This document shows, piece after piece, positions 3,001-64,000 of a stretch of DNA of 64,000 bases. Positions within the stretch are counted from its first letter, which is position 1. Every line of letters begins with the position of its first letter. This DNA is from an uncultured bacterium (GTDB taxonomy: Bacteria > Omnitrophota > Omnitrophia > Omnitrophales > Abzuiibacteriaceae). The stretch is from assembly GCA_964387845.1 (NCBI GenBank), contig CAYLXA010000009.1, positions 32,001-96,000 of the forward strand, written 5' to 3'. Under the pieces are notes generated by a model that had not been told where the DNA came from, ran no database searches, and worked only from the letters and a program-made list of their open reading frames with translations. A program made the translations under genes and the position numbers.

Positions 3001-4211
3001 GTTCATCCCGCGTCAATTCCAAATGAAACAGCTTGTTCAGGAGATGAAGGTCTTGAAACGCCCGGAGAATTTCTTTTTCTGCCTCCGTTTTGGCAAGCCG
3101 GCCGAGAAGCCGATCCGTAAGCTGCTCGATTTCGCCAAACAGAGCAGCTGCGTTCAGTTCCTGCGTGAGAATAATCCGGCCAAGCTCTTTCGATACTGCC
3201 GGAAAATCTTTAAAAGAAAATCCTTTGGCATGTGCTTTTGCATAAAAGGACTCCAGAAAGGCCCGTATCTGGTATCTAGTATCTGGTATCTCGCGGGCAG
3301 AGAGAAACTGATCAAATGATGCAATGAATGATTCAAAGTGATTCGCCTTGAGCCATTCAAAAAGCTTTGCTTTTTCACTAGATACTAGATACGAGATACT
3401 AGATACATCTTTTTCGAGTTCTTTGAGCTTAAAAAAGCGAACCAACTGCGGAAAATCGATTTGATGAATAGGGTCTGTAAGGTCAAGATCAAGATGCTGC
3501 TTTGAAAATTCCGAAAGCACGTTCAGGTGCGATAGCAACTCGCGCTTATCATCCTGAAAAAGAAAATAATCCTTCGTAAATTTGTAAAGCGCAGGATTGA
3601 AAACAAGGGATGCCTTTTTGGATAATTCTAATTTTTCTGTGCTGACCCACTCCTCGGCTTCATCCAGATGCCGGTACACTTTCCGGAACTGCGCCAGGTT
3701 GCGTTTGTAAACGCCGAGACTCTCGCTTCCGAATCCGGAGTAATCGTTTGACAATAGAAGAAGCTCCGGACCGCCGATCAAACCTTTCTCCAAGAGCTTT
3801 CGATTGATTTTGTTGTTCTGTTCTTCGTTCTCTGTGAAACGTAAAAGATTGTTTGGAATGTTGCCGGCAAGGCCGCCCTCCAAATACAACGTGTCGACTT
3901 TGTATTCCTTCTTGAGATGTTGAAGAATTTTTTGAATATTCTCTTGAGCGCCCAATTCACTGTGAGCGTCTTGGATGTGGATGACCAGCGGTAAGTCGTA
4001 AGTGGTAAGTGGTAAGTTTTGACCACCTGAAATAATCTCTTTTACTTCACCGAATTCTTCGGGAATGTGGAAAGAAACGGGCGGATTGAGTTCGACGCCT
4101 TGCGCGTAAGCAAGCGTGGAATTTAGCGTGAAAGCGATCAGCACAAACACACTAATCGCCTTGAGTATTAACAGATTCGGTTTTTTTATCGATATATTCG
4201 GTTGGTTCAAG
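1..4211 (-). CDS. Giant multidomain gene whose 3' end lies beyond the window start. It has a signal-peptide-like leader, a TraB/GumN/Tiki-like domain (GxxH motifs IQDAHSE and VTGGFHEEG) that is paralogous to the 524-aa gene at 49773..51347, two RSELR-delimited modules, and a C-terminal polytopic membrane domain containing HGVGHWAF. The start is tentatively TTG at 4209..4211.
   Basis: I translated the minus strand by hand: one frame is stop-free from 4211 to position 1. It is missing from the ORF track because no stop occurs inside the window. N-terminus: NQPNISIKKPNLLILKAISVFVLIAFTLNSTLAYAQG. RSELR is encoded at 2576..2590 and 1371..1385. Confidence 0.7.
2915..2985. repeat. In-frame palindromic heptamer element (GGTATCT/AGATACT type) inside the truncated giant gene.
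   Basis: catctggtatctggtatctggtatctggtcttcgatcaactagatacgagatactagatactagatacgatg. Translates as TSYLVSSISYLVDRRPDTRYQIPDA. Confidence 0.7.
3264..3407. repeat. Split copy of the GGTATCT/AGATACT palindrome. The arms at 3264..3292 and 3377..3407 are separated by 84 nt of coding sequence.
   Basis: gtatctggtatctagtatctggtatctcg ... cactagatactagatacgagatactagatac. Confidence 0.65.
3990..4017. repeat. Single arm of a GTAAGTG-family element embedded in frame near the 5' end of the truncated giant gene.
   Basis: ggtaagtcgtaagtggtaagtggtaagt. Translates as NLPLTTYDLPL inside the TraB-like domain. Confidence 0.65.
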
Positions 4212-4213
4212 AC

Positions 4214-4246
4214 ATAAAAAATAAGCCCTTCCCTCAAGGGCTTATC
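4214..4246 (-). terminator. GC-rich hairpin aagccct-tccctc-aagggctt followed by a U-tract on the minus-strand RNA. It could be an intrinsic terminator after gpsA or a leader structure before the next gene.
   Basis: Perfect 8-bp inverted repeat at 4224..4244, flanked by an A-run at 4216..4222 on the plus strand (U-run on the minus-strand RNA). Confidence 0.5.
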
Positions 4247-4255
4247 GATGTGAAA

Positions 4256-4284
4256 GTATACCTTATTATTAGGTGTAATTCAAG
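4256..4284 (-). promoter_or_regulatory. Candidate sigma70-type promoter, TTGAAT-17 nt-TATACT read on the minus strand, for the downstream giant gene.
   Basis: The plus strand reads agtata at 4256..4261 and attcaa at 4279..4284, with a 17-nt spacer between them. Confidence 0.35.
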
Positions 4285-8816: not shown

Positions 8817-8844
8817 ATTATAGCAAGGATTAGGAGAATTTCAA
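8817..8844 (-). promoter_or_regulatory. Sigma70-type promoter of the hrcA operon: TTGAAA-16 nt-TATAAT read on the minus strand.
   Basis: The plus strand reads attata at 8817..8822 and tttcaa at 8839..8844. CIRCE follows directly. Confidence 0.6.
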
Positions 8845-8850
8845 GCTTGG

Positions 8851-8926
8851 TTAAGTTGTAAGTGGTAAGTGATAAGTGCTAAGCAATTTGATTAACTTAC
8901 GACTTATCACTTATCACTTACAACTG
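8851..8926. repeat. Heptamer-based palindromic intergenic element of the GTAAGTG family.
   Basis: ttaagttgtaagtggtaagtgataagtgctaag / aacttacgacttatcacttatcacttacaactgaattaa. Confidence 0.75.
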
Positions 8927-8928
8927 AA

Positions 8929-11900
8929 TTAAGCGGCCATCGACGTGCGGAGTTCGGAGCGGTACTGATTCATGATGTCGGCGGTTAAGCCGGCAAGCCC
9001 TGTCAGCAAGTCAAATTGACGGCTCGTGGGAGTAATCAAATCATCCGGACTTTGAAGAATGCCGCGCGCAAAAAGCATTTCCGCAGTACCTTTATCGCGG
9101 CGTGAGGTGCCTAATGCATAACGCAGTTCAGACCTTGTTTCGCGGAGAATTTCCATTAATCGACGGTCGTTTTCTGCAACCGGGACCGGCTTAAATCCGG
9201 CCGCAATAAGTTCTGCATTAATCTCTTCAATCACACGAAGTTCGGAACGGGTGCTTGGCCTTGCAATTAGAACATGGCTTGGTGAAAGATTTTGCTGAAG
9301 TACGGCAATCAGCGGCCCATATTCAAACAATCCGCTCAAGGCAATCAAAGCGGTCTGCGCTTCTGCGCCATTCACCGATGACGCTTTCAACCCTAAAACT
9401 TCTGAAACTGCTGCACGCAATTCGGAGCGAGGCGCTGCGATACGGCTTAAGCTTTTTTGAACAACCGCACTTAAACGTTTTAAAGACTTTTCCTGATCCG
9501 CCACCGGATTAAGCCGCGCGAAATCATCAACGCCTCTTAATTCCGATCTGAGCTCTTCAGATTCATCGTCAGCAGCAGATTGACTGACCGCATCGTCTAA
9601 ACTCTTTTGGTTACCCTCGTTAATAGCTTCTCGAGCTTCTTGCGGATTAATATCAAACATTTCCGAAATCTCTTGGACGTCTGCAGGATCCTCGGCATCA
9701 TATGCTTTGGACCGGACTCGAACGTGCTCCGCTGCTAATTCAACCGAGGTCAATCCATGCGAATCGCCGTCTTCTAAATCCATCCGCAACTCGGACCGCG
9801 CTTCGGCAGCTTTTTGCGGCTGATCAGCCAATAGAAGTGCTTTTAAATCATTGTAAATAGAGGCGGATTGCCGAAAATCGAAGAAGTCTTTGCCATTACT
9901 ATCCTTGCTCTTTGAAAACTTATATCGAATGGCATGATGAATCTCAAGAATAATCCCGAAGACGGTTTGAAAGAGGTCAAATGCTTCGCCCTGGATTCCC
10001 GATTGCCGAAAATCAGTTGCAAACGCCGACGCTATACTATATGTGTCAACTCCCAACTTCTTTATTTTGTCCATTTCTATATCCTGCCGGAAAGCTGCGT
10101 TCAGATAATCGCGTGCAAGCTTAAAATATTCGTTCTTAAAGCCCTGAAACCGCTCAAGCCAATCTGTTTGCTCAGGATCTATTTTTGAAAGCGCAAGTTC
10201 GGTGGTTCTTTCCGCGTGATCAACAAGCTGAGTAATCAACGCTCGCATATCTTCAAGACTATAGGCCGTTGCGGTCTTTGAAGCTTTACTGTGTCCGGCA
10301 TTAGTATCTTGCGTTCCGGATTTGATTCGCCTAATTATCACAGCCGCCGCCAATCCAAGAACTCCGATAACACCGACGGCTACCTGCCCAAAACTAATCT
10401 CCGAAAAATAACCCTCAAAAGTTTCTTTCAAGCCGACGGACCGGACAATTGGCCCAAAAGCAAAAACCAGGACGCCGGCGGCAACAAACGCGCTTATCGC
10501 GAGCCACTTCGTCCGGCCGGTTAAGCTTTCAAGCGAATCCGTCCTTAATTCCGAGCGGCTACCGTAGTCGGGCCGGCTGTAAAATTGGCTCCCTTTTTGA
10601 TGGACCGTAAATCCAATCGAATGAATGAGTTGAACCGCTTCGCGCCGGTTAATGGCATATCCGAGATTGCTTGCTAATAAAATCACCTTATCAACAGTGA
10701 CTCGGCGAATATTTTTCAATTCATCTAAAACCTTTATGAAAAGATCATTCGAATTTTTCTGAGCACGTAATTCGGAGCGCGATAATTGCTCAACCGTTTC
10801 CCGAACAAATTGCGGAACTTCGCCGGTTGCACGCAACAGTTCTTTTCCAACTAACGTCCGGCGATGAAAATCAGATATCGGACGGTCACTGATGGCATCA
10901 GTAAGAGCTTTAAAAAGGTTCGGATCATTTTGTTTAAGAACCTCTAAAGATTGCGCATCAACTTGCTGACGCAATTCCGAACGGTTCAGAACGGCATTGA
11001 GGACATCACGTAAATCGGAAACGGCTTGGTCGAGATTTTCGAAGTCAATTTCTTGATCAGACCCGGCGATTTTCAATTTGGAGCCGTTCACTTCACCCTT
11101 CAGTCCGATATGCCTCAAGTTGGCTTCGACCGTCCGAGCCGTCACTTCGGGATTAAAACTCGCCACTGGCGCCAAAAATTCTTTGTCACCCGCTCTCACC
11201 TGAATTTTCCACTCCGAACCGAAGCCGGAAATCAATTCTACTTGCAATTCCGAACGTACGGATTCATTGGCCGCTTTGACAATACCCGTAAATTCATCGG
11301 CTTTGAGACTGGCGCCGCCGATTAAGCCACCGTCAATGTTCTTCTTTGCGACCAGCGAAGCCGCATTCTTTGGATTCATACTGCCGCCGTATTGAATACG
11401 CAATTTGGAAGCAACATCTTCGCCGTAAATGGAGAGAACTAGAGCGCGAATATAACGCTGGACCTCATCAGCCTGTTCGGGTGTTGCGGTTTTCCCAGTT
11501 CCGATGGCCCACACCGGCTCATAGGCAATTACGACATTCGCCATTTGTTCGGCCGTTACATCTTTCAAACCTTCGAGGATTTGTTTTTCAATCACGCCAA
11601 ATGTTTTGAACGCTTCACGCTCTTCCAGTAATTCACCAATCGCCAAAATCGGCTTTAAACCATTTTTGAGCGCGATTTTGACTTTGTCGTTGACGACCGG
11701 ATCAGACTCAGTCAGCCGATGATCAGCCGCTTTCTTTAAATTTCCGTGACGCCTTTCTGAGTGGCCGATAATGACATATTGAACACCCAAATCTTTTAAC
11801 TGAGCATAGGATATCTGGCTCGTTTGAGCGCCCGGTTCTTCAGCAGACAGATCTTGAGCACCCAACGTAAGCTGCTTGCTACCCGGATAGATTGTGGTTT

Positions 11901-14900
11901 CTCTTAATCTTTTTATTTCTCTGACAACTTCATCAATATGAACAAAAGAAGGTGCGATAATAATTTCCGGGTCATTTTCCAATTGAGTATTTCCGAGGCT
12001 TACGACAATTTGCTCTGTCAAAACTTGAGCACTTATTTTATCGTTCACTGCCATCTTCCAATTGCCGCCGATGATTGGGGTGCGCTTCGCATTTTCCGCC
12101 CGCGCAAGCGCTTCGGAATCGATTTTAAGTTTTTCAATTGCTCTCTGCGCCTGAAATGAATTCCAATCATTCATGATTTCATCAAACTTTTGACGAAGCT
12201 TGGGATGCAGCCGCTCATACCGAGTCTTACCGTGAACAACCCCCTTCTCTTCAAACAGCCATTGCCGCCAACGGATTGCTTCTTTGGTAAACCACTCTAA
12301 ATCCTGCTCGCTGACATCAAGCAACTTAGCTAGCGCCTCGTCCGTCATGTCAAGGCCTTCTCTACGAAACCCGTCAACTGTCGGCGTAAAACCAATTAGC
12401 ATGGGCCATTTCTTAGCGTTTTTGGTTCCTCTCGGATCTTTTACGCGCTCTGATGACCATATATCACGCCGCACATTTTCCCTGAAACCGGGAAATTCCG
12501 GTTTTCCATCCGGGCCTTCTTTGAAAACGTTGTGAGTGATAAAAATAACCTCTTTCGGCTGATTCTCGAAAAATTCAAACATGTTGTTTGTGTGCGCAAT
12601 TTCGTCTCCCGCTTCAAAATCACCGTTCGCAAATGGACTGGGGGTCAATGCGCCCACCGTTCCGGCTGCCGCAGCCGTCGCGGCGCTGATCATCATCAAA
12701 CCATACAGAATACCAGTGGCAGTATCCGGTGCCTGTCTTAAGAAAAATCCGCCTTTCGGAAGTTTAACGCCCCATTCAACCACTTGGAAAGAAACCGGCT
12801 TGCCCCAATTTTCCGGCAAGAAATCTTTTGCATTATCCGGAATGGATACCGTAAAACGGCTGTTCGGATGTGCCCATTGAAGCGCAGCCGCATAAATTTT
12901 CATCAGTGATTCAGCAACGTCTTCATTGATATGCGGAGAAAGTTTAATCAACCGCGATTTAGCTTCTTTTTTGTTGATTTTTTCGAGATCAAACTCCTCC
13001 AAAATCGCACGAATCGTATCGGATTTGTCCGAAAGCCAGAATTTTTCCAAATCCTTCACAGGAACAGCCTTGAGCGCAATGTCAATCCGTTTCGGGTCGG
13101 TCGATGACATTCCGTTCCAAACATACCAGTTTGGCTGGCCGATCGGTTTTGGCTTTCCGTCCTCTTCCAATCCTTCCCACCATTGTTCGACAACCGTGTC
13201 TGTTTCGGGGTCTAATCGGTAAGCACCGTTCGTAAAAATCGTTTTGCTGCCGGGCCCAATCATTTTCATGATGCGCGGATTGCTCTTATTGTTGGTCCCG
13301 ACCAAAACGCCAAATGAACCCAGTTCGGGACTTTCTGCTTTTGGCCATCCATCTTCCGAAATCAACTCAGCCATATTAAGATCTCTAATAGGCGTAATAT
13401 AAGTTGGGTCTATGGGCTGCCCGCCTTCATCAAACAATTTGATGCCTGCCTGACCTTGAATCCAAGCAATGTCATCTCCATGAAATTCCACTTCCCAGTC
13501 TTCTTTCAAAGCATCGGGCACTTCAACAAACGCAGAATTGGTTTTTCCGACCGCGCTCGGGTAAGCGCCGAGAATACCGATCCGCTCGCCGGTCTTTTTG
13601 TTTATTAACACTTTGATCAGCATGTGTTCGGCAAGAAAATTCTTTTTCCGGAGCGCATCGTAGTTGGCTTGGCGAAGCGCTTCAAACTTCTTGCCGAAAA
13701 GCGCATTGCCGCCATATTCGGAGCCATAAGACAAAATTAACGCTTCATGCGCAACAAGAGCAAAGTAGCGGTTATCAATGGGATTTTCCTTTCGTTCGCG
13801 CTCAGCAGCTAACTTGTCCAGATCACCCGTCACATGAATGCCGCGCTCAAAAACGTATCCTTCTTTGATGGCATCCAGTGCTAATTTTCCGATTGCGATT
13901 TTTCCTACTCGAGCCATTTTAATCATGTTGAGAGCAACGTAACGGCTATCGGTCAGCTGAATGCCGACCCGCCTTACTCCAGAATCAGGATCCGACATCA
14001 AGTATGCAATTTTGTACATCTTCTTGCCCTTGTAGCCATCAGCCTTCATTAAATCTAAAATGGTTTGTTTCTTGCCCTCAGGGCCATCCGCCATCGCCCA
14101 ATTATTGGAAGGGCCTTTGTCGTTGGAATCGTTGGTAAGCACCATCGTGCGGTTCGCTGTTCTCGCAACATCCTTCGGATGGGAGTGAGCGACATATCTT
14201 CCGTCATTTGTTTTAAAATAGCGTCGGGATGTTTTCCCCCACTCAACTTGTTCTTCCTGGAGGCGATCTTCATCGGAAACGTCAACCCATTCCGATTCTC
14301 CCGCCCCGACAAGCTCGTGGGCATAATCAACAAATTCATGAACCGACTGAGGAACTCCTTTGAAATCATCCTCGCTTAAGTTAATCCGCAGTTCGCTGCG
14401 AGAAAGTGAAGGAATTTCACGGTCGCGGTACAAATCCAAAACATCAGACGGTTCCAATCCAAATCTTGTTATAAGAGCTGAGGCAAGCGTTCCGGGATTC
14501 GCTTGGAGATGTTCTCTCGCTTCATTAAGCGCTCTTTCGCGCATTTCAGCTTCATATGCAGCAGTATCGCTTCCGCGGCCTCTTTGCGCATGACGAACGG
14601 CTCTGAGTTCGCTGCGAGTCGTTAGAAGCTGATCGATAACTTCAATGGCGCTTGCAACCGTTTGAATTTTTTCAGCTTCTTCATCTGGAATTCTAATATC
14701 AAAGTCACCCTCTAGTGACACAACGAATTCGACAGTTTTCAACGAATCCCAATTCTCTATTAAATCTTCAAATCGAACATCATCATCAATGGGAATATCT
14801 GATTCCAAACCGCTGATCTCTCTAAGTCGCCAAATAACTTGCCGCTGAATGTCACCGATGCTGAATATGCTTGCGCCGGCTGTGTCACCAGTGCGAAGTT

Positions 14901-17900
14901 CGCTCTGTTTAGCAGCGAGAGCATTGCTCGGCTCTGTGCTTTTTGCCCGCCGAAGAGAGAGACCATGCCTGTCAAGCGCGGCTGTGATTTCTTGAATATT
15001 CTCGACTGAAAAACGGGCTTGCCTGAGATCAGTCGCACTCATTTGGGTTAAGACGTTGACAGTCGTAACACCCTTAGTTCTTAACAGGCCAGCGAGTTTG
15101 ACGGGCAAGTTTAATTGTGAAAAACGGATGCTTTGCGCAGCATTACCCCGAAGCTCCGAACGCGCAGCGGCTTTGATTGCTTCTTCCAAGAGCGCAATGT
15201 GCTCATTGATAACGATAAACTCTGTGACTTGGAAATCCTGATCCTCCGGACTGAGCGTGGCTAAATTTTCATGCAGATAACTGACCAATTCGGCAAACTT
15301 TGATCTCATAACTTGAAGCATTTCCTTCAGCTCTTCGGCGGAAAACCGGCTCAAATACTCTTTGTAAACGGCTTTCCGGTCAGAGGATTCAACCTGCGAT
15401 TGCAACTGCGCAATCCGCATCTCTACGTTCCGGGCCAGATCTGCTGCAAAAGATTCCGGAGAAATCGGCTTATTTTCAAAAAGCACGGCTTCCATAAGCC
15501 CGCTCGGGCCTTCTTTTGTTTCCACCGTTCTTGCGTCGGCTACGACCTGATTAGAGTCCGCATGCTCAAAACCTCTCAACTGGATACCGTTCCGGAGACT
15601 GACGCCGATCCATCCTCCACGGCCGCCGAAACGCTCGCCCATTCCATGATCCGTAAAAATAATGCGGGAATCAATTTGAAAACCACCGATCACGCCACGT
15701 TTCTCGGCGTTTAGTTTGGTCGCAAATTCATGAAACGGCAGATGCCCGGTAAACAAACGGTTAAACCCGTTGACTTCGGCGAGTCTTCGCGCACCAAACT
15801 TATTAATAGCAGCCGCCACATTCGGCACCTTGATCTCGGTCGTGTTGTCGGCATACCAGCTGTTTACCAAATTGAGCGCTTCATAAATTTCAGAAAGCGA
15901 CGGGTTTGAGCGTATGTCGTGCGCAACAATGTCCAAGCCTTGCCAAACCGATGGATGTTCTTTGCTGCCTTTTCCTCGATATTCAATTTTCTTAGACGGA
16001 TCATCCTTGCTTCTGTAGGTGAAATAAAATTCACCTGTGCTCATATCCACCGGCAAAAACGCGTGCATATAAATATTTTGATAAGCATCGCGCTGATACA
16101 AATGAAACTGCGCTTTGAAGAAATCAGCTATCCGGTCAAGCGTGTGATTTTCCAGATAATTGGCCGAAGTCACTTTTGCATCGGCCGGCAAGTTTTCGTT
16201 CAACTCCTTGATAACCGCTGTTCCCCAATCCTTATGAAAGACCCAGTCTTTCGCCCACCACTCAGGTGACGTATAATTCTGCCGGTTAACGGCTTCGAAA
16301 ACTTTTGCCCAGTCTTTGCCTTGATCCACAAACGATTGGAGGTCTTTCTTGAGTTCGGGAAGAATATCTTCGGACATCATCCGGATCGCTTCACGCCACG
16401 CCTGATTGGACGGCAGTTCGGCATCAAAACCCTGTGCGGCTTCAATCGATGCATAAGCCTTTCTAAATCCCTCCAGCAAATCTTCCCACCAAGGAATCGA
16501 AACGGTGCCGACCGCGCGGACTCCGGTGTAAATATCCACCAAATACCAGCCTCGGAACTGATTCCACAACCGGATCTGCTCGGCATCACCGTTCAAACTG
16601 GCAGAAACTTGCTTGTAAAGACCGCTGCCTTCAACGCGTTTCTTGCGTTTTTCATCAGTCCATGCGCCGTTTACTTTAATTTCAAGCGTATCCCAAAATT
16701 CTTTTTGCCGCTTTTCATGGAATGCGGTAAATTCGGCGAGATGTTCCGCCCACCAAGTTTTGGCTTTGGCTTCGGGAATTTCTTTCCGGTAGCGATCCGC
16801 GATTGCTTCTGCTTCCCGGTCACCGTAAAAATTATAGCCTTCGTAAAACGGCAAATGAAAACCCTGCAAATTCATAAACATCCACAAATCATGATTGCCC
16901 GGTATAAAATCAGACAGTCCCGCATCAATTAATTCTGCGGAACGATGAAATACTTTCACGCCGTAAGGCCCGCGATCCATCAAGTCGCCTAAATTATGAA
17001 GGTAAATCTTGCGCCGCAAATCATCAAACGTAACGCCATGAACGGCCAGCTGGTCTTGAAGTGCTTTACTCGGATTCAATTTAAAATCTGCCGGCAGTTG
17101 ACCGGGCAAAACTTGGTTGATTGCATCAACGATCAGTGCGTCAAAACGATCGATCGTTCCGTGCTGGTCCGAAATAACGGCTGCAATGGGAAAATCTCTA
17201 GACTCAGAGGGTTTTTCAAGCTGCGAAAGCAAATCAAATAGCAATTTCAGCTCTTCCTTTGACGGCATATAGGTAGTCGAAATGCTCTTTTCTCTCAGTT
17301 CAGAGCGGTTCTTACGATTGCTATTGTGATTGAGCTCAAAAATACGGTTAATCTGACCTGCAACAGTTGCAAGGTCACCCCGCACAGGCCATTCAACTGT
17401 GACTAAGGTATCCCGCTCAACAATCGGTATCACGGAACTTCTGTGATCGCCTTTGGCTAATTGCACGCCACGAGTTTGAAGAAGAGTTGCTAAAGCGTGA
17501 GCGCTGCCTGCAAACTGAGGTTCCGCATGACCTGGAAAATAAACATCCAATCCTTTCTTCTTTAAATTTGGGATCACATGAACAGGCGCTTGATTAGAAT
17601 TGACAAGGCCTGAAACTGGTAATTGGGCCGGTTGGCCAAGAGGATCGCTTGAATCGGCAACAGGAAAAGGACTATTCTTTGTCTTGGTTCTCTTTCTAAG
17701 AGCTTTTTTGCGGGTACTTGCTTCAGTTACCGAACCGCTGGCATGAGCAATCACTTCTCCGTCTTTATTATCGCGCTTCACTTCATAAAAAAGTACATTT
17801 GTGCCGCCTTTCCGCTCAACTTTAAAAATTTGTAAGCGTATTTTCTTTCCGCGAGGGCCCACAAAGAAAACTGAATTGCGGGCGCGATTTAAGGCATAAT

Positions 17901-18741
17901 CTGAAATTGCTGCTTTAATTTCATCTATATACTGCTTCATATCGGCGGTTTCGGTGATGAAACTCGAAAATTCAAATTTCTGGATCTGCTGAGCCCGGAG
18001 TTCAGAGCGCAGCAGTTCGAGTGCGGTTTCGCGGGCTTCGGAATCTTGAGGGAACGCAAAGATGGTGTCCACCAAAACCAATTTTCCGTTTCGGATATAT
18101 TCCATAAAAGAATCGATTTCAGGCCCCGGGAAAACTCCTTTGTGTTCACCCAGCATGTGAGAAATGTGATGATTTTGCGAAACGCTCTTTAAACCATTGC
18201 CGACATGGAAATGCAGGTGAGGCACTGTGATTTCCGTTCCACCGTTTACTCTCACTTTCAATTCTTTGCCCTGCCTAAAAAAGACCGTTAATTTTTTACT
18301 GTCATCTGAACTTTCTATCGATGACACGCCGCCATACAAGAGAGCATCTTTTAATTGGGCAGACAAATTATCCGGCCATGCAATGGTTTGGAAATCAAGG
18401 GATCCCTCGCCCAAAAGGCCTCTGTGTTCTGTGGTTTGCGCTACAATTAATAGAAGCTTGTCCGCCAATTGATCCGCAAGCTGTTGGCTGAGCGGTTTAT
18501 TCGGATCCAAAAACAACACTTGCCTGAGTTCGGAACGGAAAGAAGGATATTGCGCTGCAAATTGACGGAGTTCGGAAGCGGCTTTGCTCCAGACAGCGGC
18601 TAAATTGCGGACCGTAGTGGTGCCGGGCTTCGGCGCGAAAATAGTTTGCGGAATGTCCGAATATGCCATCGAACTCGAGAATGTAAACGCAAACAATGTT
18701 GCGCTTGCCGTCATTTTGATCAGTTTATGTTTTAGATTCAT
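8929..18741 (-). CDS. Giant polyprotein-like gene of about 3270 aa. It has a signal-peptide-like leader, a metallophosphoesterase module, a complete GTP-type PEP carboxykinase, a complete triosephosphate isomerase, a transmembrane segment and further modules. Twelve exact RSELR motifs. The start is moved to the ATG at 18739..18741.
   Basis: Stop-free frame of 9.8 kb. True N-terminus MNLKHKLIKMTASATLFAFTFSSSMAYSDIP. The track's 5' extension (MVSFKLLTTYHLSLITK) is a translation of the repeat element. Confidence 0.8.
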   Translation of the reverse strand: MNLKHKLIKMTASATLFAFTFSSSMAYSDIPQTIFAPKPGTTTVRNLAAVWSKAASELRQFAAQYPSFRSELRQVLFLDPNKPLSQQLADQLADKLLLIVAQTTEHRGLLGEGSLDFQTIAWPDNLSAQLKDALLYGGVSSIESSDDSKKLTVFFRQGKELKVRVNGGTEITVPHLHFHVGNGLKSVSQNHHISHMLGEHKGVFPGPEIDSFMEYIRNGKLVLVDTIFAFPQDSEARETALELLRSELRAQQIQKFEFSSFITETADMKQYIDEIKAAISDYALNRARNSVFFVGPRGKKIRLQIFKVERKGGTNVLFYEVKRDNKDGEVIAHASGSVTEASTRKKALRKRTKTKNSPFPVADSSDPLGQPAQLPVSGLVNSNQAPVHVIPNLKKKGLDVYFPGHAEPQFAGSAHALATLLQTRGVQLAKGDHRSSVIPIVERDTLVTVEWPVRGDLATVAGQINRIFELNHNSNRKNRSELREKSISTTYMPSKEELKLLFDLLSQLEKPSESRDFPIAAVISDQHGTIDRFDALIVDAINQVLPGQLPADFKLNPSKALQDQLAVHGVTFDDLRRKIYLHNLGDLMDRGPYGVKVFHRSAELIDAGLSDFIPGNHDLWMFMNLQGFHLPFYEGYNFYGDREAEAIADRYRKEIPEAKAKTWWAEHLAEFTAFHEKRQKEFWDTLEIKVNGAWTDEKRKKRVEGSGLYKQVSASLNGDAEQIRLWNQFRGWYLVDIYTGVRAVGTVSIPWWEDLLEGFRKAYASIEAAQGFDAELPSNQAWREAIRMMSEDILPELKKDLQSFVDQGKDWAKVFEAVNRQNYTSPEWWAKDWVFHKDWGTAVIKELNENLPADAKVTSANYLENHTLDRIADFFKAQFHLYQRDAYQNIYMHAFLPVDMSTGEFYFTYRSKDDPSKKIEYRGKGSKEHPSVWQGLDIVAHDIRSNPSLSEIYEALNLVNSWYADNTTEIKVPNVAAAINKFGARRLAEVNGFNRLFTGHLPFHEFATKLNAEKRGVIGGFQIDSRIIFTDHGMGERFGGRGGWIGVSLRNGIQLRGFEHADSNQVVADARTVETKEGPSGLMEAVLFENKPISPESFAADLARNVEMRIAQLQSQVESSDRKAVYKEYLSRFSAEELKEMLQVMRSKFAELVSYLHENLATLSPEDQDFQVTEFIVINEHIALLEEAIKAAARSELRGNAAQSIRFSQLNLPVKLAGLLRTKGVTTVNVLTQMSATDLRQARFSVENIQEITAALDRHGLSLRRAKSTEPSNALAAKQSELRTGDTAGASIFSIGDIQRQVIWRLREISGLESDIPIDDDVRFEDLIENWDSLKTVEFVVSLEGDFDIRIPDEEAEKIQTVASAIEVIDQLLTTRSELRAVRHAQRGRGSDTAAYEAEMRERALNEAREHLQANPGTLASALITRFGLEPSDVLDLYRDREIPSLSRSELRINLSEDDFKGVPQSVHEFVDYAHELVGAGESEWVDVSDEDRLQEEQVEWGKTSRRYFKTNDGRYVAHSHPKDVARTANRTMVLTNDSNDKGPSNNWAMADGPEGKKQTILDLMKADGYKGKKMYKIAYLMSDPDSGVRRVGIQLTDSRYVALNMIKMARVGKIAIGKLALDAIKEGYVFERGIHVTGDLDKLAAERERKENPIDNRYFALVAHEALILSYGSEYGGNALFGKKFEALRQANYDALRKKNFLAEHMLIKVLINKKTGERIGILGAYPSAVGKTNSAFVEVPDALKEDWEVEFHGDDIAWIQGQAGIKLFDEGGQPIDPTYITPIRDLNMAELISEDGWPKAESPELGSFGVLVGTNNKSNPRIMKMIGPGSKTIFTNGAYRLDPETDTVVEQWWEGLEEDGKPKPIGQPNWYVWNGMSSTDPKRIDIALKAVPVKDLEKFWLSDKSDTIRAILEEFDLEKINKKEAKSRLIKLSPHINEDVAESLMKIYAAALQWAHPNSRFTVSIPDNAKDFLPENWGKPVSFQVVEWGVKLPKGGFFLRQAPDTATGILYGLMMISAATAAAAGTVGALTPSPFANGDFEAGDEIAHTNNMFEFFENQPKEVIFITHNVFKEGPDGKPEFPGFRENVRRDIWSSERVKDPRGTKNAKKWPMLIGFTPTVDGFRREGLDMTDEALAKLLDVSEQDLEWFTKEAIRWRQWLFEEKGVVHGKTRYERLHPKLRQKFDEIMNDWNSFQAQRAIEKLKIDSEALARAENAKRTPIIGGNWKMAVNDKISAQVLTEQIVVSLGNTQLENDPEIIIAPSFVHIDEVVREIKRLRETTIYPGSKQLTLGAQDLSAEEPGAQTSQISYAQLKDLGVQYVIIGHSERRHGNLKKAADHRLTESDPVVNDKVKIALKNGLKPILAIGELLEEREAFKTFGVIEKQILEGLKDVTAEQMANVVIAYEPVWAIGTGKTATPEQADEVQRYIRALVLSIYGEDVASKLRIQYGGSMNPKNAASLVAKKNIDGGLIGGASLKADEFTGIVKAANESVRSELQVELISGFGSEWKIQVRAGDKEFLAPVASFNPEVTARTVEANLRHIGLKGEVNGSKLKIAGSDQEIDFENLDQAVSDLRDVLNAVLNRSELRQQVDAQSLEVLKQNDPNLFKALTDAISDRPISDFHRRTLVGKELLRATGEVPQFVRETVEQLSRSELRAQKNSNDLFIKVLDELKNIRRVTVDKVILLASNLGYAINRREAVQLIHSIGFTVHQKGSQFYSRPDYGSRSELRTDSLESLTGRTKWLAISAFVAAGVLVFAFGPIVRSVGLKETFEGYFSEISFGQVAVGVIGVLGLAAAVIIRRIKSGTQDTNAGHSKASKTATAYSLEDMRALITQLVDHAERTTELALSKIDPEQTDWLERFQGFKNEYFKLARDYLNAAFRQDIEMDKIKKLGVDTYSIASAFATDFRQSGIQGEAFDLFQTVFGIILEIHHAIRYKFSKSKDSNGKDFFDFRQSASIYNDLKALLLADQPQKAAEARSELRMDLEDGDSHGLTSVELAAEHVRVRSKAYDAEDPADVQEISEMFDINPQEAREAINEGNQKSLDDAVSQSAADDESEELRSELRGVDDFARLNPVADQEKSLKRLSAVVQKSLSRIAAPRSELRAAVSEVLGLKASSVNGAEAQTALIALSGLFEYGPLIAVLQQNLSPSHVLIARPSTRSELRVIEEINAELIAAGFKPVPVAENDRRLMEILRETRSELRYALGTSRRDKGTAEMLFARGILQSPDDLITPTSRQFDLLTGLAGLTADIMNQYRSELRTSMAA
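11290..12090 (-). other. Complete triosephosphate isomerase module.
   Basis: IIGGNWKM, IIGHSERR, AYEPVWAIGTGKTATP and YGGSMNP. It follows the PEPCK module directly. Confidence 0.8.
12190..14370 (-). other. Complete GTP-dependent phosphoenolpyruvate carboxykinase module.
   Basis: NNWAMADG, GKKMYKIAYLMSDPDSGVRRVGIQLTDSRYV, SYGSEYGGNALFGKKFEALR, YPSAVGKTN and HGDDIAW. Preceded by RSELR at about 14380..14400. Coordinates are approximate. Confidence 0.75.
15750..17200 (-). other. Calcineurin-like metallophosphoesterase module inside the 3270-aa gene.
   Basis: ISDQHG, GDLMDRG and GNHD motifs. Coordinates are approximate. Confidence 0.55.
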
Positions 18742-18816: not shown

Positions 18817-21800
18817 TTATGCGGCGCGTCCCAATTCGATAACGTTACGCAGTTCCGATCTTAAAGATTCCGCAATTTGAGTAATACCAAACGCATTAAA
18901 CAGCGCCTTGACTTCGCTCCGGCCGACAAACACAACCTGGCTTGCATAACGCTTCAGCATTTCGGCTGACGTTGCGTCACTTTCTTTTGAAGCAATAATC
19001 CTGAAATTCTTGGCACCCAATTTCCGAAGTTCTGAGCGCGCCTGGACAAAATCGCGCACAATCACAAAACGGTCTGAGTTTACATCCGCAACCGCGGCCC
19101 GGATGGCAGTTTCGCTGGCCGGATCAAGCGCAATGAGCGCCGTCGGATCGGCCGAATTTTCTAAAATAATCGGAAGTGCCCATAAGACATCCTCGTTAAT
19201 CAAAAGGCCTTCTGTCAGAATATTACCGACTGCCGTTTCTACCCCGGCGCCATCCTGCGCTTGCATAAATTGACGAATAGCCGCTTGAGGTTCTTCGCTT
19301 CTGGCACGGGTAAACTGCCTCCGGCCTGCTTCGACTTTCGACCTGATTCGTGTAGTAACGGCCGCAGGAATCATGGAAGACGTATCCAACGAGCCAAACG
19401 CAGAGCTCGGAACCGCAGTCAATCGCAATTCGGAACGGGTTTCTAGTTTCTGGTTTTTAGTTTCTGGTTTAAACTTGAAACTAGAGACTAGAGACTCGAA
19501 ACTTTCCTTACGAAGTTCGGAACGCTCCCACTTACCCGTCTTTTCAAGCGTGTGCTGCGCAATTGCGTGTTTAGTTTTAATCAAAGACCCCAGATCAAGT
19601 TCAAATTCCGAGGATGTTAAAGTATATGTACCCGAAAATCTGGATTCCAATTGCTGGATGCGTTCCACACCTTCCAGAACCAAAACTTTTGTCATGTTCA
19701 ACTCATGATCAGACTCAAGCCCGAGATCGATACGATGTTGGGTCCTGTTCACAACCGAAACGAGCGCAAAAAGTTCCGAGACCATTTTCCCGAATGCCAT
19801 AAAATAGCTTTGAACTTCTTTCTTATCTTTGATGGCTTTTGCCCCGCCAAACCGTTCTATAAGTTCTTCGCCGGCTTTTTCAACCAAAGCTGATACGTTC
19901 CAAACAATTTCCCAATCACGCTGAAGCGGGCTTTGGTCTGGAATATCCCAGCCTTGCAGCAATTGACGGTCATTCTTCCACACTTCGGATTCCAAATATT
20001 TGAGTACTGCCGATGCAATAACTTGCGAATAAAGGATTTCGTTGGCGCCTTCAAAAATCGTCATGACACGGGCATCCGCGTTAGTACGGGCGACTTGTTC
20101 TTCAACCATAAACCCCGCACCGCCGCGTTTTTGAACCGCTTCACTTGTCAAACGGTTCAGAACTTCAGAGCCCCACGCCTTCGCGGCCGCAGCTTCAAGC
20201 CCTGGTTCCGAAACACCGCCGTCAAAAAGCCCGGCAAGTGAATAGCTAATAGACTCAAGCGCATAGGTGTAAGCTTCCATGTCTGCAAGCGTTTCCTGAA
20301 CAGCGCCCCAATTGGCGAGCTGCGTACCGAACTGTATGCGATCGAGCGACCAATTTAAAGTTCTTTCAAATGAACGGAGCGCACCGCCCCAGCTTCCGGC
20401 TGCGACCGCCGTACGGCCGTGATTGAGAATCGACATGCCGATTTTATTGCCGTCGCCCAATTGGCCGAGCAGATTTTCCTTCGGAACCCGCGCATTCTCA
20501 AAATACACATCGACAGTCGAAGAACCATGAAGGCCTGTTTTGTGGTAGTCGTTGCTGATGGAAATGCCTGCCGCTTTGCGTGCTTCCGCATCCTTCGGGA
20601 ATTCAACGATAAAAACACTCTTCTCGTTTTCACCCGTCATCGCAAATACGGTCATAACATCCATGAAACGGCCGTTTGTGATAAACGCTTTTTCGCCGGT
20701 AATTTCATAATATTCTTCACCGGTCGTTTCATCTTTTTTGAGCACCGCTTTGGTTTTTAAAACCGATTCGCGGTTTAAGCTGTCTGAACCATGCGCGGTT
20801 TCAGTCAACGCGTAAGCGCCGATCCATTCGCCGGTCGCGAGTTTCGGCAGGTATTTCCGCTTTTGCTCTTCCGTTCCGAATTTCACAATCGGAAGCGTTC
20901 CGACACCGCCATGAACACGAACGAGAGAACCCACCGACGGATTGGCATACCACGCCCACATATCTGCCAGTGTTTTCATAATCTTTTTAAAGTTACCCAA
21001 CCCGTATTCTTCGGGAACTGACATCCCCAGCAAGCCCATCTCTCCTGCCTGCTGCAAAATGCCGCCCTCATCCTCAACTTTGACAGCGCCGCTATCAATC
21101 TTTTCGCTTTCCGGAACTACCGCGCTCTTGAAGAAATTGGCGATGGCTTCATTCATTGCATTGATTTCTTCATGACCGGCTAAATCTTCCGGAAATTGGA
21201 GCGTGCCTTCGGCCACATTGGCGCGGCCATATAATAGGAAGTCGCCGGATTTGGGCGTACTTTCGGCGAACGGTACCAGTGCTTTGTCATTCTGAGGCGC
21301 AGCCGAAGAATCTACGGTCGCAGATCCTTCGCTTCGCTCAGGATGACCGGCTTTTGCCTTATCCAGCACTTCTTTTTCCATCGCGTCCATCATTTTCAGA
21401 GTATTGGCGCGAATCAAAAGAGCGTTCTTTCCATTTCTTGCTTCATAGGTAACGGGAACGATCGGCAGTTTTTCACGCGTGACTTTGATTTTGTCAGCCG
21501 CGGGAGCAATAGCGCGGATGTCAATCACATCGCCCGGACGGATGTCATGATTAAAAGTAGCCAGATCGGTCACATTCAGTAATAAATGACCGGGAACGGC
21601 TTCCGCAGACATCCTGGCCGCTACTTTAATGGCTGCAAGAATATTGACAAGTCTCGGATCATTTGATTCGGCAATCACGCGTACACCGTTTAAATAATCT
21701 TCCGTAACCGTTACGGGCAGAAGGCCGCTTGGATTTTCATTTGGCGATGACGTATCTTGAATGCGCGGGCTTGCAGAATCCGTAAAATCAAATATCTGCT

Positions 21801-24800
21801 TCGGAACCGAGTGCGTAACACCTTCGGACCATGCTTTCGCCTGATCGATTTGCGATTGGGTGGGTTTTGAAGTATCAAACGGCTCATCGGCCGGCCTTGG
21901 TTTCATATTGGCAACGATTTCTGCCACCACTTTCCCGGCTTGATTAACAACCTGAATCTTAAGCTTCGCGACACCATTTTCAGAAATACTCATGACTTCA
22001 ATGACCGGTGTCACCACGTCGTCAAACTTCACGGGCGCTGAAAATTTCGCGCTTTCTACCGCACTACCCTCATCTCCGATGCCGATAAATTCATACCCGG
22101 GAAGCTCTTCCTGGGTACGGGCCAGCATTTTAGAAACCGTCAGAAGGCCATGTGCAACCAGAGCGCCAAATTTGGACGCTTCCGCGTATTCTTTGAGTAA
22201 GTGGAAACGGTTGCGGTCGCCTTCCATCGCGAAGAGCTTGACCATCCACTCGCGCATGATGAGCGCGTTTCCGAGAATCTTTTGGCCGGCGAATACGGAA
22301 AGTGCGTTGTCTTCCGTGCGCCCGCCCGGACGAAGCGCTAAGAGAAGTCTTGCGCGCGCCTTTGTATAACGTTCTTTTTCGGCATCGCTCAAAATACCAG
22401 GGATTTTCATGGCGCGTTCCATTTGGATAAACGGAATGCGCGCGGATGCAGCATCTACGATTTCAAGCGCGCCGGTCACAGGATCTTTGAATCCGACAGC
22501 GCCAAGGCCGCGGTCTTGATCGGCAACGGCGTAATCTTCGATAATCGCAAGGTCGCGCTCAGTTGAATTTTTCCATGCTTTTGCGTACGCTTTGCCTGCA
22601 TCACTCTTGAGCCATTCTTTCTTGGCCGCTTTGCCTTCATCCGTTTTCAAATCAAATACGGGCATCGCACCGACCGTGTCAGCGCGTTGCGGACTTAACA
22701 AGCGGTTAATTTCATCAACTTGATTGGCTTTTGCAAGTTTTCCCGCGAAACCCCAATTGGCGACACGTTCCGCTTCATGCGTTACATTTTCATCACTGGA
22801 ATAACCATCGATCGCGTCAATTTTTGAATATGCCGTGAGAGCAATAAAAAGTGAGTGATAATAATTGTAACCTTTCGTTGTCGGATCATCTTCGGCCTCA
22901 TGAACCATATTGCCGTCAACATCGAAAATCGCGGCCGTTACGCGGCGGCTTGCACGCATGATCGACTGCGTTTCCGATTCCTCAAACGCTTTTGCTTCTT
23001 GTTCGATTGCTTTAGGGTCAGAAATGCTGGGTACAATTTCAAACCCTCCCGTGAGATATCTATAATCATGTTCAAACTCGGATAGAAAACCGTCTAGCTC
23101 TCTGATTTCTTTTGCGCTTTGTGTGTTTTGATACACAATACCCGTAACAGAGGATGCGAGTAATGGGAAAATATCCTTAAGTCTTTCGATTGGATTTGAC
23201 TTTGCAGTTTCAATCCAAATAATCTTTTCATGCTCGCCCGGGAGCATCAATCCTTTAAGTTTTTGTATAGAATCCTTGAAAGAACCGTCTTGCCACCACG
23301 AAGCCGGTGCGGAATCTAAATTGATTTTAATGATATCCACCTCTGAATTCATTGCTATATTCAGAGCTTCATAGTCATTTACGTCAACACTTACGATTGA
23401 TCGTGCCAATGACACATCGCGCGGAACGAAAACTTCGGGCGGAAGAATAGGTTTGCTGTCGGCTGCCATTTTGTCGAGATCGGCCAGTTTTATTTCGGGT
23501 AATTTTTTGTAATCGTAATCCGGATGTTTGCGGATGACAGGCGGAAATTGGCCGAGGAATGGCTCCATTCCCTTCAAGTGGTTCGGATGAACGCTCCACT
23601 TGCGGTTCATGCCGATCTTGATAAATTTTTCTGTGTCGGCTGTGGTCGGCTCAACTTCAAGTTTCACGGTAATGCCGGTACCCGCCACTTTTCCGGTTTT
23701 CTTTCCGGCTTCAACGATATCGAGAAGCGCTGAGCGCATATACGGAAATTGCTCATGCTGCACTTCATTTTTCCCGCCGGTTGCGGCTGTGTAATCGACA
23801 ACGCCAAGCTGTGCTTCTTCTACTTCCGGAGCAATTGATAAAATCCGTTCAGCGTTCAAAGTTCCACCGGGAAGTTCTGTGAGCACAAATACTTTATGAG
23901 AACCGACGGGGCGATTGACCCATTTTTGTTCGGCTTGAATCGCACGCAGATTGGCAACACCGATGCGGACATCCTGCGGGCCGAATACTTTCGGCATATA
24001 AATACCGTCTATCAAATGGCCGATGGCGCGAAAGACGATGGAATAATCGCCCGCGGACCACTTGGTGCGCAGATTGTTCGGACGGAACAGAATCATCTGG
24101 TCTTTATGGAAACGCGCTTCTTCTTTTAATTGGAAGCGTCTATTGCGCGAATGAATCTCATCCCACTCGTCTTCTGACAACATCCGGTAATCCGAATAAT
24201 CGGTGTCATCCGGCAATTCAATAAGATATTTGTCGATCGGATCTTTTTCGTCGTTGGCCTGCAAAGCATTCTTTTTCAAGAAATCAACTTGCTCTTGTGT
24301 GAGGATTTCGCCCTTGAACAACCGGATCAATTGAATAATGACTTCGCGCGCAAGTTCCTTGCGGATGGTCGCTACGGCATCTTCCAAATCTAATAGAAGA
24401 ATCGGAGCCTTCATGCCCGCGCGTGCGGCAAGCAGCATGAATTTCCAGTTATCACCGGGAAACACATTTTGGACTTCGCGCGGCATGTACTCCCACGCAA
24501 GCCGTGCGGCAACTTCATCAGCCGTCACATCGGGCTTCACGACTTTCCAATTTTCGTAGCGGTAATTGAGGTCTTTCACGGCATGAGCTTCATCATTGCC
24601 AAACGCGGTCAGCAATGCCTGCTTCACTTCCGCATTCGTCACTTGATCGAGCGAAATTTCCCGTAATTCGGAACGGACAAACTCGGGGCTCTTCAATCTG
24701 TTGCGGTCAATTTTTTGAAGGTCGCCGGTGCGCGGAAGTGAGGAAACAATCACAACCCGCTTGGGTGCTTTGTAATGGGCAAGTGACTCTTTTGCGGATT

Positions 24801-63952: not shown

Positions 63953-64000
63953 CAAACTTAATTGGGGCAGCGAATCCCAAACCCAAACGGGAGCGTAAAC

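Follow-up and report, generated by a model that had tools for sequence, protein, structure and literature searches.

Giant proteins of the Omnitrophota are the closest described counterparts of the genes discussed here. One class of them, the "multi-enzyme metabolic cluster", carries signal peptides or transmembrane (TM) helices, and its metabolic content is predicted on the outer face, a paradox noted by the authors themselves (Nielsen & Lui 2026, bioRxiv 10.64898/2026.06.07.730766). An earlier study speculated that giant proteins are cleaved post-translationally at points that were unknown, and proposed C39/S8 peptidases (West-Roberts et al. 2023, bioRxiv 10.1101/2023.11.21.568195). The present analysis concerns a 64,000-nucleotide stretch of contig CAYLXA010000009.1 from an uncultured Omnitrophota bacterium (assembly GCA_964387845.1), hereafter the window, and within it one open reading frame (ORF), ORF E, on the minus strand (8929..18741; 3270 codons, stop codon at 8929-8931). 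Like the described class, ORF E and its neighbors are long ORFs tiled with many metabolic Pfam domains, such as PGM and methyltransferases, and carry a putative signal peptide, TM helices or both; at 3,270 residues, with neighbors of 2,595-6,161, they fall short of the published catalogs, which list proteins of at least 10,000 residues. Judged from its sequence, ORF E belongs to a battery of polyprotein genes whose precursors are, on balance, probably cleaved at a recurrent pentapeptide, RSELR, so as to release a putative bifunctional enzyme made of phosphoenolpyruvate carboxykinase (PEPCK) and triosephosphate isomerase (TIM).

A sequence-only reading of the window had described an ORF of 3270 codons that holds both enzymes, and Pfam, NCBIfam and two assemblies all bear it out. 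To this the present analysis adds a system of at least seven genes, a near-absence of cysteine, a conserved leader and C-terminal domain, and the lack of a motif between PEPCK and TIM. The longest frame opens at a GTG at 18795 and encodes 3288 residues, and the ATG at 18741 gives the 3270 codons. Past the stop codon of the upstream gene comes a palindromic (NNTAAGT)n hairpin; the GTG falls inside it and the ATG lies 5 nt beyond it, which makes the ATG the likelier start. Giant ORFs of metagenome bins are often suspected of being artifacts, and ORF E as a whole has no close database homolog other than itself. An origin by mis-assembly, frame-fused pseudogenes or a recoded stop, any of which would join separate genes into one apparent ORF, is nevertheless very improbable. 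The 3288-residue product occurs identically in an NCBI contig (106,097 bp) and in an independent Logan assembly of SRR15237813, so it is no assembly accident. About 57 kb of ORFs run unbroken on one strand in the standard code, the ORF E enzymes keep their catalytic residues, and many independent metagenomes share the leader, the tail, the motif and the depletion of cysteine.

The evidence for punctuation is statistical and positional. RSELR occurs 50 times and KSELR five times in 19,014 polyprotein residues, where composition predicts 0.03; shuffled sequences give at most 0.6 for any form of RSELR degenerate at one position, and the commonest unrelated 4-mer occurs five times. No copy of RSELR is present in hrcA, grpE, dnaJ, gpsA or ORF H, and the four other reading frames contain two SELR and no RSELR, which essentially limits the motif to the two coding frames. 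Every synonymous codon for R, S, E and L is used among the copies, indicating that it is the peptide, rather than the DNA, that is under selection; a DNA-level repeat or recombination site is excluded by the same freely varying codons. Pfam searches of ORFs E, F, G, H, I and J (E<=0.01) define domain envelopes into which none of the 56 motif copies of ORFs E-J (SELR plus one RSELQ) falls, an outcome with P ~1e-8 under random placement. In ORF G the copies lie 13-47 residues from domain edges, and the units they bound are an AprA-like methyltransferase, a MeaB-methylmalonyl-CoA mutase-B12 unit, a methyltransferase, a biotin carboxylase plus carboxyltransferase, and a kinase-like protein. The complete polyproteins each carry one or two copies within 60-160 residues of the leader, and ORFs E, F and I terminate in RSELR plus 5-9 residues. 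The earlier proposal that the product is processed gains strong if indirect support from this conserved motif, which brackets recognizable enzymes both here and in relatives.

The copies nearest the two enzymes of ORF E define their module. One RSELR stands directly upstream of PEPCK (14386..14400, minus, residues 1466-1470), an RSELQ variant follows six residues past the end of TIM (11242..11256, minus, residues 2514-2518), and the next canonical RSELR lies at 10969..10983 (minus, residues 2605-2609). Further copies, all on the minus strand, are at 18565-18579, 18523-18537, 17995-18009, 17293-17307, 15148-15162, 14893-14907, 14602-14616, 10765-10779, 10543-10557, 9784-9798, 9535-9549, 9415-9429, 9235-9249, 9121-9135 and 8947-8961. 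The sequence-only reading had both enzymes preceded by RSELR; this holds for PEPCK and not for TIM, for no copy separates the two, and PEPCK and TIM therefore form a single inter-motif module of ~1043 residues.

Within this module the GTP-type PEPCK domain (12106..14382, minus, residues 1472-2230) lies N-terminal of the TIM domain (11272..12078, minus, residues 2240-2508), with a linker of ~70 residues and no separator. That a full PEPCK runs into a full TIM in one ORF, as had been read from the translation, is supported by Pfam, and all the strings quoted for it (YPSAVGKTN, HGDDIAW, NNWAMADG, IIGGNWKM and IIGHSERR) are present. PEPCK_N matches residues 1487-1714 (E 1.3e-42, 146.3 bits against a cut-off of 23.8) and PEPCK_GTP extends to residue 2167 (E 2.2e-45, 155.4 bits, cut-off 23.8). 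GTP-dependent PEPCKs are defined by PF17297 together with PF00821, each above its gathering threshold, and ORF E scores above both. The NCBIfam equivalog PRK04210, with a threshold of 504, is reached only to 327.9 bits, in three stretches; the domain is broken by two lineage-specific insertions of ~30 and ~60 residues and is only 35-45% identical to any homolog. TIM matches PF00121 over profile positions 1-244 of 245 (E 1.1e-76, 258.1 bits), passes TIGR00419 (tim) in NCBIfam with 149 against a cut-off of 130.6, and aligns end to end with the Thermotoga TIM 1b9b, its best PDB match.

Both active sites appear intact. In TIM, the Lys of N-W-K, the His of GHSERR and the Glu of AYEPVWAIGTG are retained along with the phosphate loops YGGS and GGASL, so that the catalytic triad singled out for inspection is complete in the translation and in the 1b9b alignment. 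Alignments of PEPCK to the M. tuberculosis enzyme and 13 homologs show retention of DVAR, YGGN, GKK, AEHM, PSxxGKTN, GDDIAW, HPNSRF and the F..FPGF.EN guanine pocket, residues whose roles we take to be those of rat cPEPCK. The deviations are GGR to GVK, W to V in NWF, and a lid loop that lacks the conserved E and R.DP. Mutated catalytic residues, which would have made the modules non-enzymatic scaffolds, are found in neither enzyme. Among the 150 best matches in an exhaustive PEPCK/TIM search of 1.84 billion representatives, the only other PEPCK-to-TIM adjacency is in the giant polyprotein P0218. The ~60-residue insertion before HPNSRF (12300-12560, residues ~2080-2165; ..DPKRIDIALKAVPVKDL..) is common to P0220, whose PEPCK module belongs to a 5945-residue polyprotein rich in alanine and arginine. 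The PEPCK of the congener L009 lacks this insertion and is only ~40% identical to that of ORF E; the ORF E PEPCK is therefore probably not the ortholog of the L009 enzyme.

The remaining modules of ORF E are more varied. A metallophosphoesterase module (15163..17292, minus, residues 502-1211) has RSELR on either flank and lies upstream of PEPCK and TIM, where the sequence-only reading had placed it. The Pfam match supporting it (Metallophos, residues 539-650) is weak, at 18.7 bits in the full ORF and 21.5 bits, equal to the cut-off, in the isolated module; the module also matches the PDB metallophosphoesterase 4j6o (E=2.8e-4), and residues 496-1312, which include it, are ~50% identical to a module of L009. 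Its metal-binding motifs presumably resemble those of class 3 fructose bisphosphatase (FBPase), but Pfam does not support the class 3 (Firmicute-type) identity: PF06874/FBPase_2 gives only E=0.51 and 9 bits over 40 residues. Next come a small module resembling the C-terminal domain of the RNA polymerase alpha subunit (14908..15147, minus, residues 1217-1296; weak matches to PF03118, E=1e-3, and NCBIfam rpoA) and an acyl-carrier-protein-like module (14617..14892, minus, residues 1302-1393) that keeps the DSL serine motif and matches TIGR00517 (E=7e-13, under the cut-off) and PF00550 (22.7 bits). Beyond TIM, two hydrophobic helices with Kyte-Doolittle scores of 2.3 form a TM hairpin that opens a 250-residue module (10330..10512, minus). 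A single-sequence AlphaFold2 (AF2) model of residues 2500-3288 has a mean pLDDT of 42, with only the 90-residue module after TIM moderately confident, and at that value is uninformative as to whether the motifs lie in disordered linkers.

A mechanism can be proposed on this basis. Its framework is observed: behind a conserved leader with its pro-region, each gene encodes cargo modules that vary from gene to gene (enzymes of core metabolism, small proteins, small membrane proteins), then a conserved C-terminal domain that closes with -AA or -SA, and the strictly conserved (R/K)SELR delimits the modules. The cutting is inferred: a dedicated site-specific endopeptidase would recognize RSELR and cut the precursor into module-sized products. 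ORF E would then yield ~17-18 of these, among them the metallophosphoesterase (possibly an FBPase analog), the acyl-carrier-protein-like protein, a two-helix membrane protein and a bifunctional PEPCK-TIM of ~118 kDa with both active sites intact-looking. Small modules of ORFs I, E and G often open with a hydrophobic helix 10-25 residues past RSELR (ORF I, residues 197 to 217, 648 to 668, 1601 to 1612 and 1809 to 1825; ORF E, 2748 to 2762), and such modules would resemble small N-terminally anchored membrane proteins once released.

The ends of the precursors are as conserved as their punctuation. ORF E starts with a leader, MNLKHKLIKMTASATLFAFTFSSSMAYS, followed by D (18658..18741, minus). On inspection its n, h and c regions, with A at -3 and S at -1, resemble those of a Sec signal peptide, in keeping with the Sec-type leader first noted at this position. 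Its consensus, ..K.IS..L..(S/T)F(T/S)FT.S.AYS|D, is common to ORFs E, F, G and I and to the polyproteins of L004 and L005. The Sec-type pattern of a positively charged n-region, a hydrophobic core of 10-15 residues and small residues at -3 and -1 is found by inspection and hydropathy in E, F, G, I, K and H, and inspection of the leaders revealed neither a lipobox Cys nor a twin-arginine motif. None of the observations marks the ORF E leader as an uncleaved membrane anchor. A profile of ten leaders run against a 5.8-billion-protein database returned one irrelevant match, the profile being too short. Downstream of the leader, E, F, G, I and related contigs share a pro-region of pattern ..(A/S)ELR.LLGLP.., which in ORF E (18523..18657, minus) holds the first two motif copies, ASELR and RSELR. 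The C-terminal domain (8932..9438, minus) ends in RSELRTSMAA and is 31% identical to the L009 tail. An alignment of 20 C-termini defines a homologous domain of ~150 residues with a terminal ..(R/S/Q)AA or SA; it has no Pfam match and looks alpha/beta by sequence pattern. In several Cys-free large ORFs that lie beside H homologs and lack internal separators (L021, L023, L029, L030, L032, L065 and L072; e.g. ..TMRSVERLVEAP and ..KMRSIRATETKA), an 'R-S/A' pair stands ~10 residues from the C-terminus, the place that the final RSELR takes in E, F and I; this pair might represent the ancestral site.

The polyproteins are almost devoid of cysteine. ORFs E (0/3288), F (0/5718), I (0/2595), J (0/1497) and K (0/1426) have none and ORF G has 2/4513, one CxxC, which gives two cysteines in ~19,000 residues. 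The neighboring genes contain ~1% (gpsA 3/343, dnaJ 9/373, hrcA 2/342), and the neighboring cytoplasmic proteins together hold 14 in 1,268 residues. The argument for a purge stands on that total and on this comparison. Nonsense-robustness and rare-tRNA causes are excluded by normal frequencies of Trp, Tyr, Met and His. ORF H has a single Cys, within its leader, and only in the RSELR clade does mature H lack Cys altogether. Related polyproteins are likewise Cys-poor and keep Cys only where chemistry requires it, as in the Fe-S fumarase module of L013 and the GAPDH active site of P0237 and P0239; no thiolase was seen by Pfam alongside the beta-oxidation-type enzymes of the cluster ORFs. The change of the PEPCK P-loop Cys to Val was dropped as evidence of the purge, the closest PEPCK subfamily having Ser there and being Cys-poor itself (0.28%).

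The leader and the lack of cysteine raise the possibility of export; exported proteins are known to exclude cysteine (PMC2823432). The polyproteins might be self-processing cargo carriers of the kind seen in MARTX and large toxins: the leader and C-terminal domain would export an unfolded Cys-free chain, and a co-delivered TIKI-fold peptidase would free the modules outside the producer's cytoplasm, the conceivable destinations being a Sec-accessed compartment and the cytoplasm of a host or prey cell to which these epibiotic nanobacteria attach. The canonical leader on both the polyproteins and H, the Cys contrast with the neighboring proteins, the Cys-free mature H of the RSELR clade and the placing of variable cargo between conserved N- and C-terminal handles, as in secretion substrates, are all consistent with such a carrier. 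So are the use of the TIKI fold by a MARTX effector peptidase and the description of Omnitrophota as host-dependent or predatory (PMC10066038). Several observations make it an unlikely account all the same. The cargo is of a housekeeping type that the producer itself needs (TIM, phosphoglycerate kinase (PGK), enolase, PEPCK, acetyl-CoA carboxylase and methylmalonyl-CoA mutase), Fe-S fumarase and GAPDH occur in related polyproteins, and no secretion-system genes were found within the window. Pfam gives no match in ORFs E, F, G, H, I and J to RTX-type glycine-rich repeats or a cysteine protease domain, and TM-based topology puts the G and I enzymes on the cytoplasmic side. A consistent in/out topology could not be derived from the TM segments, which place the E enzymes 'out' and the G and I enzymes 'in'. 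This account overlaps with processing at RSELR.

Processing at RSELR calls for a peptidase, and ORF H provides a candidate. Its AF2 model is confident (pLDDT 90.6) and its closest structural neighbors belong to the EreA/ChaN/TIKI/TraB superfamily, including the MARTX endopeptidase RRSP; as modeled, ORF H has the alpha/beta TIKI fold. Among 58 sequences H74, E102 and H467 are invariant and D72, of D72-x-H74, is at least 90% conserved, a set that matches, at the level of motifs, the 2His/2Glu-type site of active TIKI enzymes. These enzymes include sequence-specific endopeptidases (PMC6254334). Homologs of H form 86 clusters of 326-663 residues, and the named ones are from Candidatus Omnitrophica/Omnitrophota except one labeled Deltaproteobacteria; the window's H is 62-64% identical to the Candidatus Omnitrophica proteins P0136 and P0138, which indirectly assigns the window to the same phylum. 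H genes adjoin large multi-enzyme ORFs in most metagenomic loci examined, and ORF K, L002 and the L013 fumarase polyprotein have H-like domains as their first modules. The peptidase of the proposed mechanism may then be the TIKI-fold H family, stand-alone in the cluster and the first module of other polyproteins. This is the weaker part of the proposal, and H is a candidate by association, not by proof.

Relatives show how the modules and their punctuation vary. Related polyproteins from Omnitrophota metagenomes have the same architecture with shuffled modules and variant separators, RSEAR, RxELR and DGGxK. In the congener L004/L009, whose dnaJ product belongs to the same 90%-identity cluster, the same enzymes appear in other ORF combinations; in L009 PEPCK forms a separate module flanked by RSELR/ASELR, next to the same phosphoesterase module, and TIM is missing. 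RSELR also occurs in the enolase and UDPGP+GDH polyproteins of L005, and L002, a metagenome-assembled genome of Candidatus Omnitrophota, has TIM with RSEAR on either flank behind an H-like first module. In L013 the pattern R.E.R occurs 22 times against 2.5 expected, in the form RxE(L/F)R. P0218, the top match in the search of 1.84 billion representatives, has PEPCK and then TIM with 'AADGAGK' between them, and DGG.K occurs seven times against 0.09 expected. About two dozen leader-bearing, Cys-poor giants with PEPCK or TIM are among the 150 best matches. A scan of genome contigs for the PEPCK-TIM module found one distant TIM locus (L002) only, and a scan of metagenome contigs found no match, its 8-mer patterns being too specific.

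Two further groups came to light among these relatives. P0218, P0231, P0232, L038 and L049 form a leader-bearing, Cys-free multi-enzyme lineage punctuated by (A/S/R)(A/S)DGGx(K/R) in place of RSELR, which suggests lineage-specific separators; these would be the expected product of co-evolving protease/site pairs. Another TIM- or PEPCK-bearing giant class (P0222, P0225, P0228, P0229, P0242, P0254, P0271, P0286 and P0336) has a different conserved N-terminal domain of ~350 residues (..LNLPAPG..WVNLSPYE..LLAQDY.LKQ..), a C-terminal '..GGIDL..P(V/I)II..' domain and, by eye, Ser-rich 'ASSP(V/I)'-like junctions between enzymes, and some of its members have GAPDH with the catalytic Cys kept. Small genes of the bAvd / 23S_rRNA_IVP family, accessory genes of diversity-generating retroelements, adjoin the congener polyprotein genes (L004 11613-11969; L009 11430-11783), and none was seen at the equivalent window positions.

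Cleavage at RSELR has to be weighed against an intact protein. The chain could remain an uncleaved mega-enzyme, a membrane-tethered metabolon scaffold in which RSELR is a linker, docking or helix-capping motif that may bind a partner, a chaperone or the C-terminal domain rather than mark a cut site; in the 2026 preprint, Omnitrophota giants are interpreted as multi-enzyme proteins associated with the membrane. A number of observations speak against processing, and some of them favor such a scaffold. At a conserved position of the C-terminal domain, relatives have (P/S)T(R/K)(A/S)EL(R/K) where ORF E has RSELR, and a conserved run of hydrophobic residues that resembles a strand-to-helix junction precedes it in the alignment; a copy inside a conserved domain could serve in structure or binding. 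Several modules are true fusions of two to four enzymes with no motif between them, e.g. PEPCK-TIM and HpcH-MaoC-acyl-CoA dehydrogenase. Leader-bearing, low-Cys multi-enzyme ORFs in L012, L021, L030, L032 and others have no repeated separator, which implies that separation is not obligatory in this protein class. H also occurs where RSELR-type motifs are missing from the genome or locus (L007, L012), and its fold also covers esterases and a haem-binding protein, so that the choice of H as the RSELR peptidase is a guess. Finally, the export signals are at odds with cargo that depends on ATP, GTP, NAD, CoA, B12 or S-adenosylmethionine, and with the Fe-S fumarase in the polyprotein of a relative (L013).

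The same motif nonetheless behaves in ways that a scaffold does not require. A linker could do without five invariant residues, and without copies placed directly behind the leader and 5-9 residues before the C-terminus. Lineages have swapped the motif wholesale for RSEAR, RxELR or DGGxK and kept the punctuating positions, and the alternation of soluble enzymes with small TM modules would give the intact chain an incoherent topology. These features leave the uncleaved mega-enzyme a rather doubtful alternative to processing at RSELR.

Where the processed enzymes would act is a separate matter. The paradox noted at the outset, gluconeogenic enzymes behind a secretion-type leader, is real. The leader, the Cys purge and the terminal handles argue for translocation, and cofactor-dependent cargo, an Fe-S enzyme and absent secretion genes argue for a cytoplasm-like milieu; the leader and the purge conflict with cofactor-dependent cytoplasmic enzymes. 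The leader and the near-absence of Cys suggest that precursors would come into contact with the translocation machinery of the membrane or with surroundings outside the cytoplasm, and the site of action may be the cell's own cytoplasm, a Sec-accessed compartment or a host or prey cell. A bolder version, to which we assign a low probability, is that this clade makes much of its central carbon metabolism as leader-bearing, Cys-purged polyproteins that are translocated unfolded, cut by a TIKI-fold endopeptidase at a lineage-specific pentapeptide, and active outside the conventional cytoplasm. It would cover glycolysis/gluconeogenesis, the methylmalonyl-CoA pathway, beta-oxidation-type enzymes and acetyl/propionyl-CoA carboxylase, and would combine a virus-like strategy with a relocated metabolism, sited in a Sec-accessed metabolic compartment or the interior of a host or prey cell.

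The genes around ORF E show the scale of the system. At least seven consecutive giant ORFs with central-metabolism enzymes lie head to tail in the window, all on the minus strand. ORF F (18817..35973, minus; 5718 residues, 8 RSELR, 0 Cys) contains several 3-hydroxyacyl-CoA dehydrogenases, methylmalonyl-CoA mutase, acyl-CoA synthetase, HpcH lyase, MaoC and acyl-CoA dehydrogenase. ORF G (36245..49771, minus; 4513 residues, 9 SELR) contains an AprA-like methyltransferase, MeaB with methylmalonyl-CoA mutase and a B12 domain, a methyltransferase, biotin carboxylase with carboxyltransferase, and a kinase-like AAA_18 domain. Residues 1129-2660 of ORF G (41800-46400) are one inter-motif module with two MeaB-like GTPase regions, methylmalonyl-CoA mutase and a B12-binding domain, which we take to resemble IcmF-type MeaB-mutase fusions. 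ORF H (49773..51341, minus; 524 residues) is the leader-bearing hydrolase of TIKI/EreA/ChaN fold and has no RSELR. ORF I (51386..59173, minus; 2595 residues, 16 SELR) combines a Glu/Leu/Phe/Val-type dehydrogenase with many small TM modules, and ORF J (59462..64000, minus; >1497 residues, its 5' end beyond the window) has a phosphoglucomutase module and 5 RSELR. ORF K (1..4279, minus; 6161 residues on its contig, its 3' part beyond the window; 0 Cys) runs from its leader through an H-like TIKI-fold first module to RSELR-separated modules, and hrcA-grpE-dnaJ and gpsA stand between ORFs E and K.

The intergenic regions hold several elements of their own. Upstream of hrcA (8744-8928, minus) is a near-consensus sigma-70 promoter, TTGAAA-16-TATAAT (8844..8817), and downstream of it lies the inverted repeat TTAGCATTC-N10-GAGTGCTAA, which is CIRCE-like; regulation of the heat-shock operon therefore looks conventional. 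Regions of ~230-300 nt 5' of the polyprotein genes (window 35974-36244 and 59174-59461; L004 2026-2294 and 19306-19608; L005 116-343 and 5972-6211) share a 'ACCTAATAT' box beside a TTGAC -35-like element and, further downstream, a conserved ..CTGACTAAGAGCTTTAAAAAAGTCAGATAAG.. element with hairpin potential. An Rfam scan of the window gave zero matches, this shared element included. Heptamer-repeat palindromic hairpins, (NNTAAGT)n / (ACTTANN)n, occur at 18751-18807, 8850-8922, 6978-7057, ~5776-5803 and 4362-4389, directly past the stop codons of F, E, grpE and gpsA and with one arm between dnaJ and gpsA; one arm-like copy lies inside ORF K (3990-4017). They may be terminator or stabilizer elements similar to repetitive extragenic palindromes.

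The conserved separator supplies candidate cleavage points, the absence of which West-Roberts et al. saw as blocking the analysis of giant proteins, and it turns the question of whether such proteins are processed into a directly testable one. If the processing is real, a cellular organism makes its housekeeping metabolism as polyproteins, with a bearing on stoichiometric expression, nanobacterial genome streamlining and module shuffling. The leader and Cys purge on ATP, NAD and CoA enzymes imply either an unrecognized selection on cytoplasmic proteins or an unusually located core metabolism, and either would be of general interest for episymbiont cell biology. Splitting such ORFs at their separators should also make it easier to annotate thousands of 'dark' giant genes and to predict the structures of their products.

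In the two Omnitrophota giant-protein preprints (2023, 2026) neither 'SELR' nor 'polyprotein' appears, and 'cleavage' is absent from the main text of the 2026 one. A full-text literature search returned no report of RSELR/RSEAR as a separator or cleavage motif; what it matched was alginate-lyase motifs and the varSelRF software. Nor did it find a paper that connects Omnitrophota with polyproteins, fusion or cleavage, PMC10407285 dealing with SpeD fusions only. Over the giant-protein papers, the present analysis adds the pentapeptide separator, the Cys purge, the leader and pro-region, the C-terminal domain and the TIKI-fold family. We know of no report of a Cys purge, of a conserved leader plus C-terminal domain or of an Omnitrophota TIKI-fold family, no search for these having been made.

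Comparison with better-known systems brings out likenesses and differences. The Thermotoga maritima PGK-TIM (NCBIfam PRK13962) is likewise a complete, intact TIM fused in frame with an enzyme of the same pathway; in ORF E, by contrast, the partner is PEPCK, it is N-terminal, and the fusion lies within a 3270-residue precursor. Cargo proteins of the type IX secretion system with its C-terminal domain, and autotransporters, share the N-terminal Sec-type leader, variable cargo, conserved C-terminal domain and low Cys, but the C-terminal domain here looks alpha/beta rather than a beta-sandwich or barrel, the cargo is of cytoplasmic type, and no components of type IX or type V secretion systems were seen. 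MARTX and large clostridial toxins differ in having RTX repeats, a cysteine protease domain or type I secretion genes, in carrying toxins instead of metabolic cargo, and in having Leu-X sites instead of a fixed pentapeptide. A parallel in logic exists with viral polyproteins of the picorna-, flavi- and nidovirus type. These too encode many products in one ORF with short junction motifs and a mixture of soluble and membrane proteins, and they have a protease within or beside the polyprotein, sometimes as its leading module, which is where the candidate peptidase stands here. Processing of ORF E is predicted from its sequence, and no homology to viral proteases was found. What sets ORF E and its neighbors apart from the viral systems is their place on a cellular chromosome, flanked by hrcA-grpE-dnaJ and gpsA, and their cargo of central carbon metabolism.

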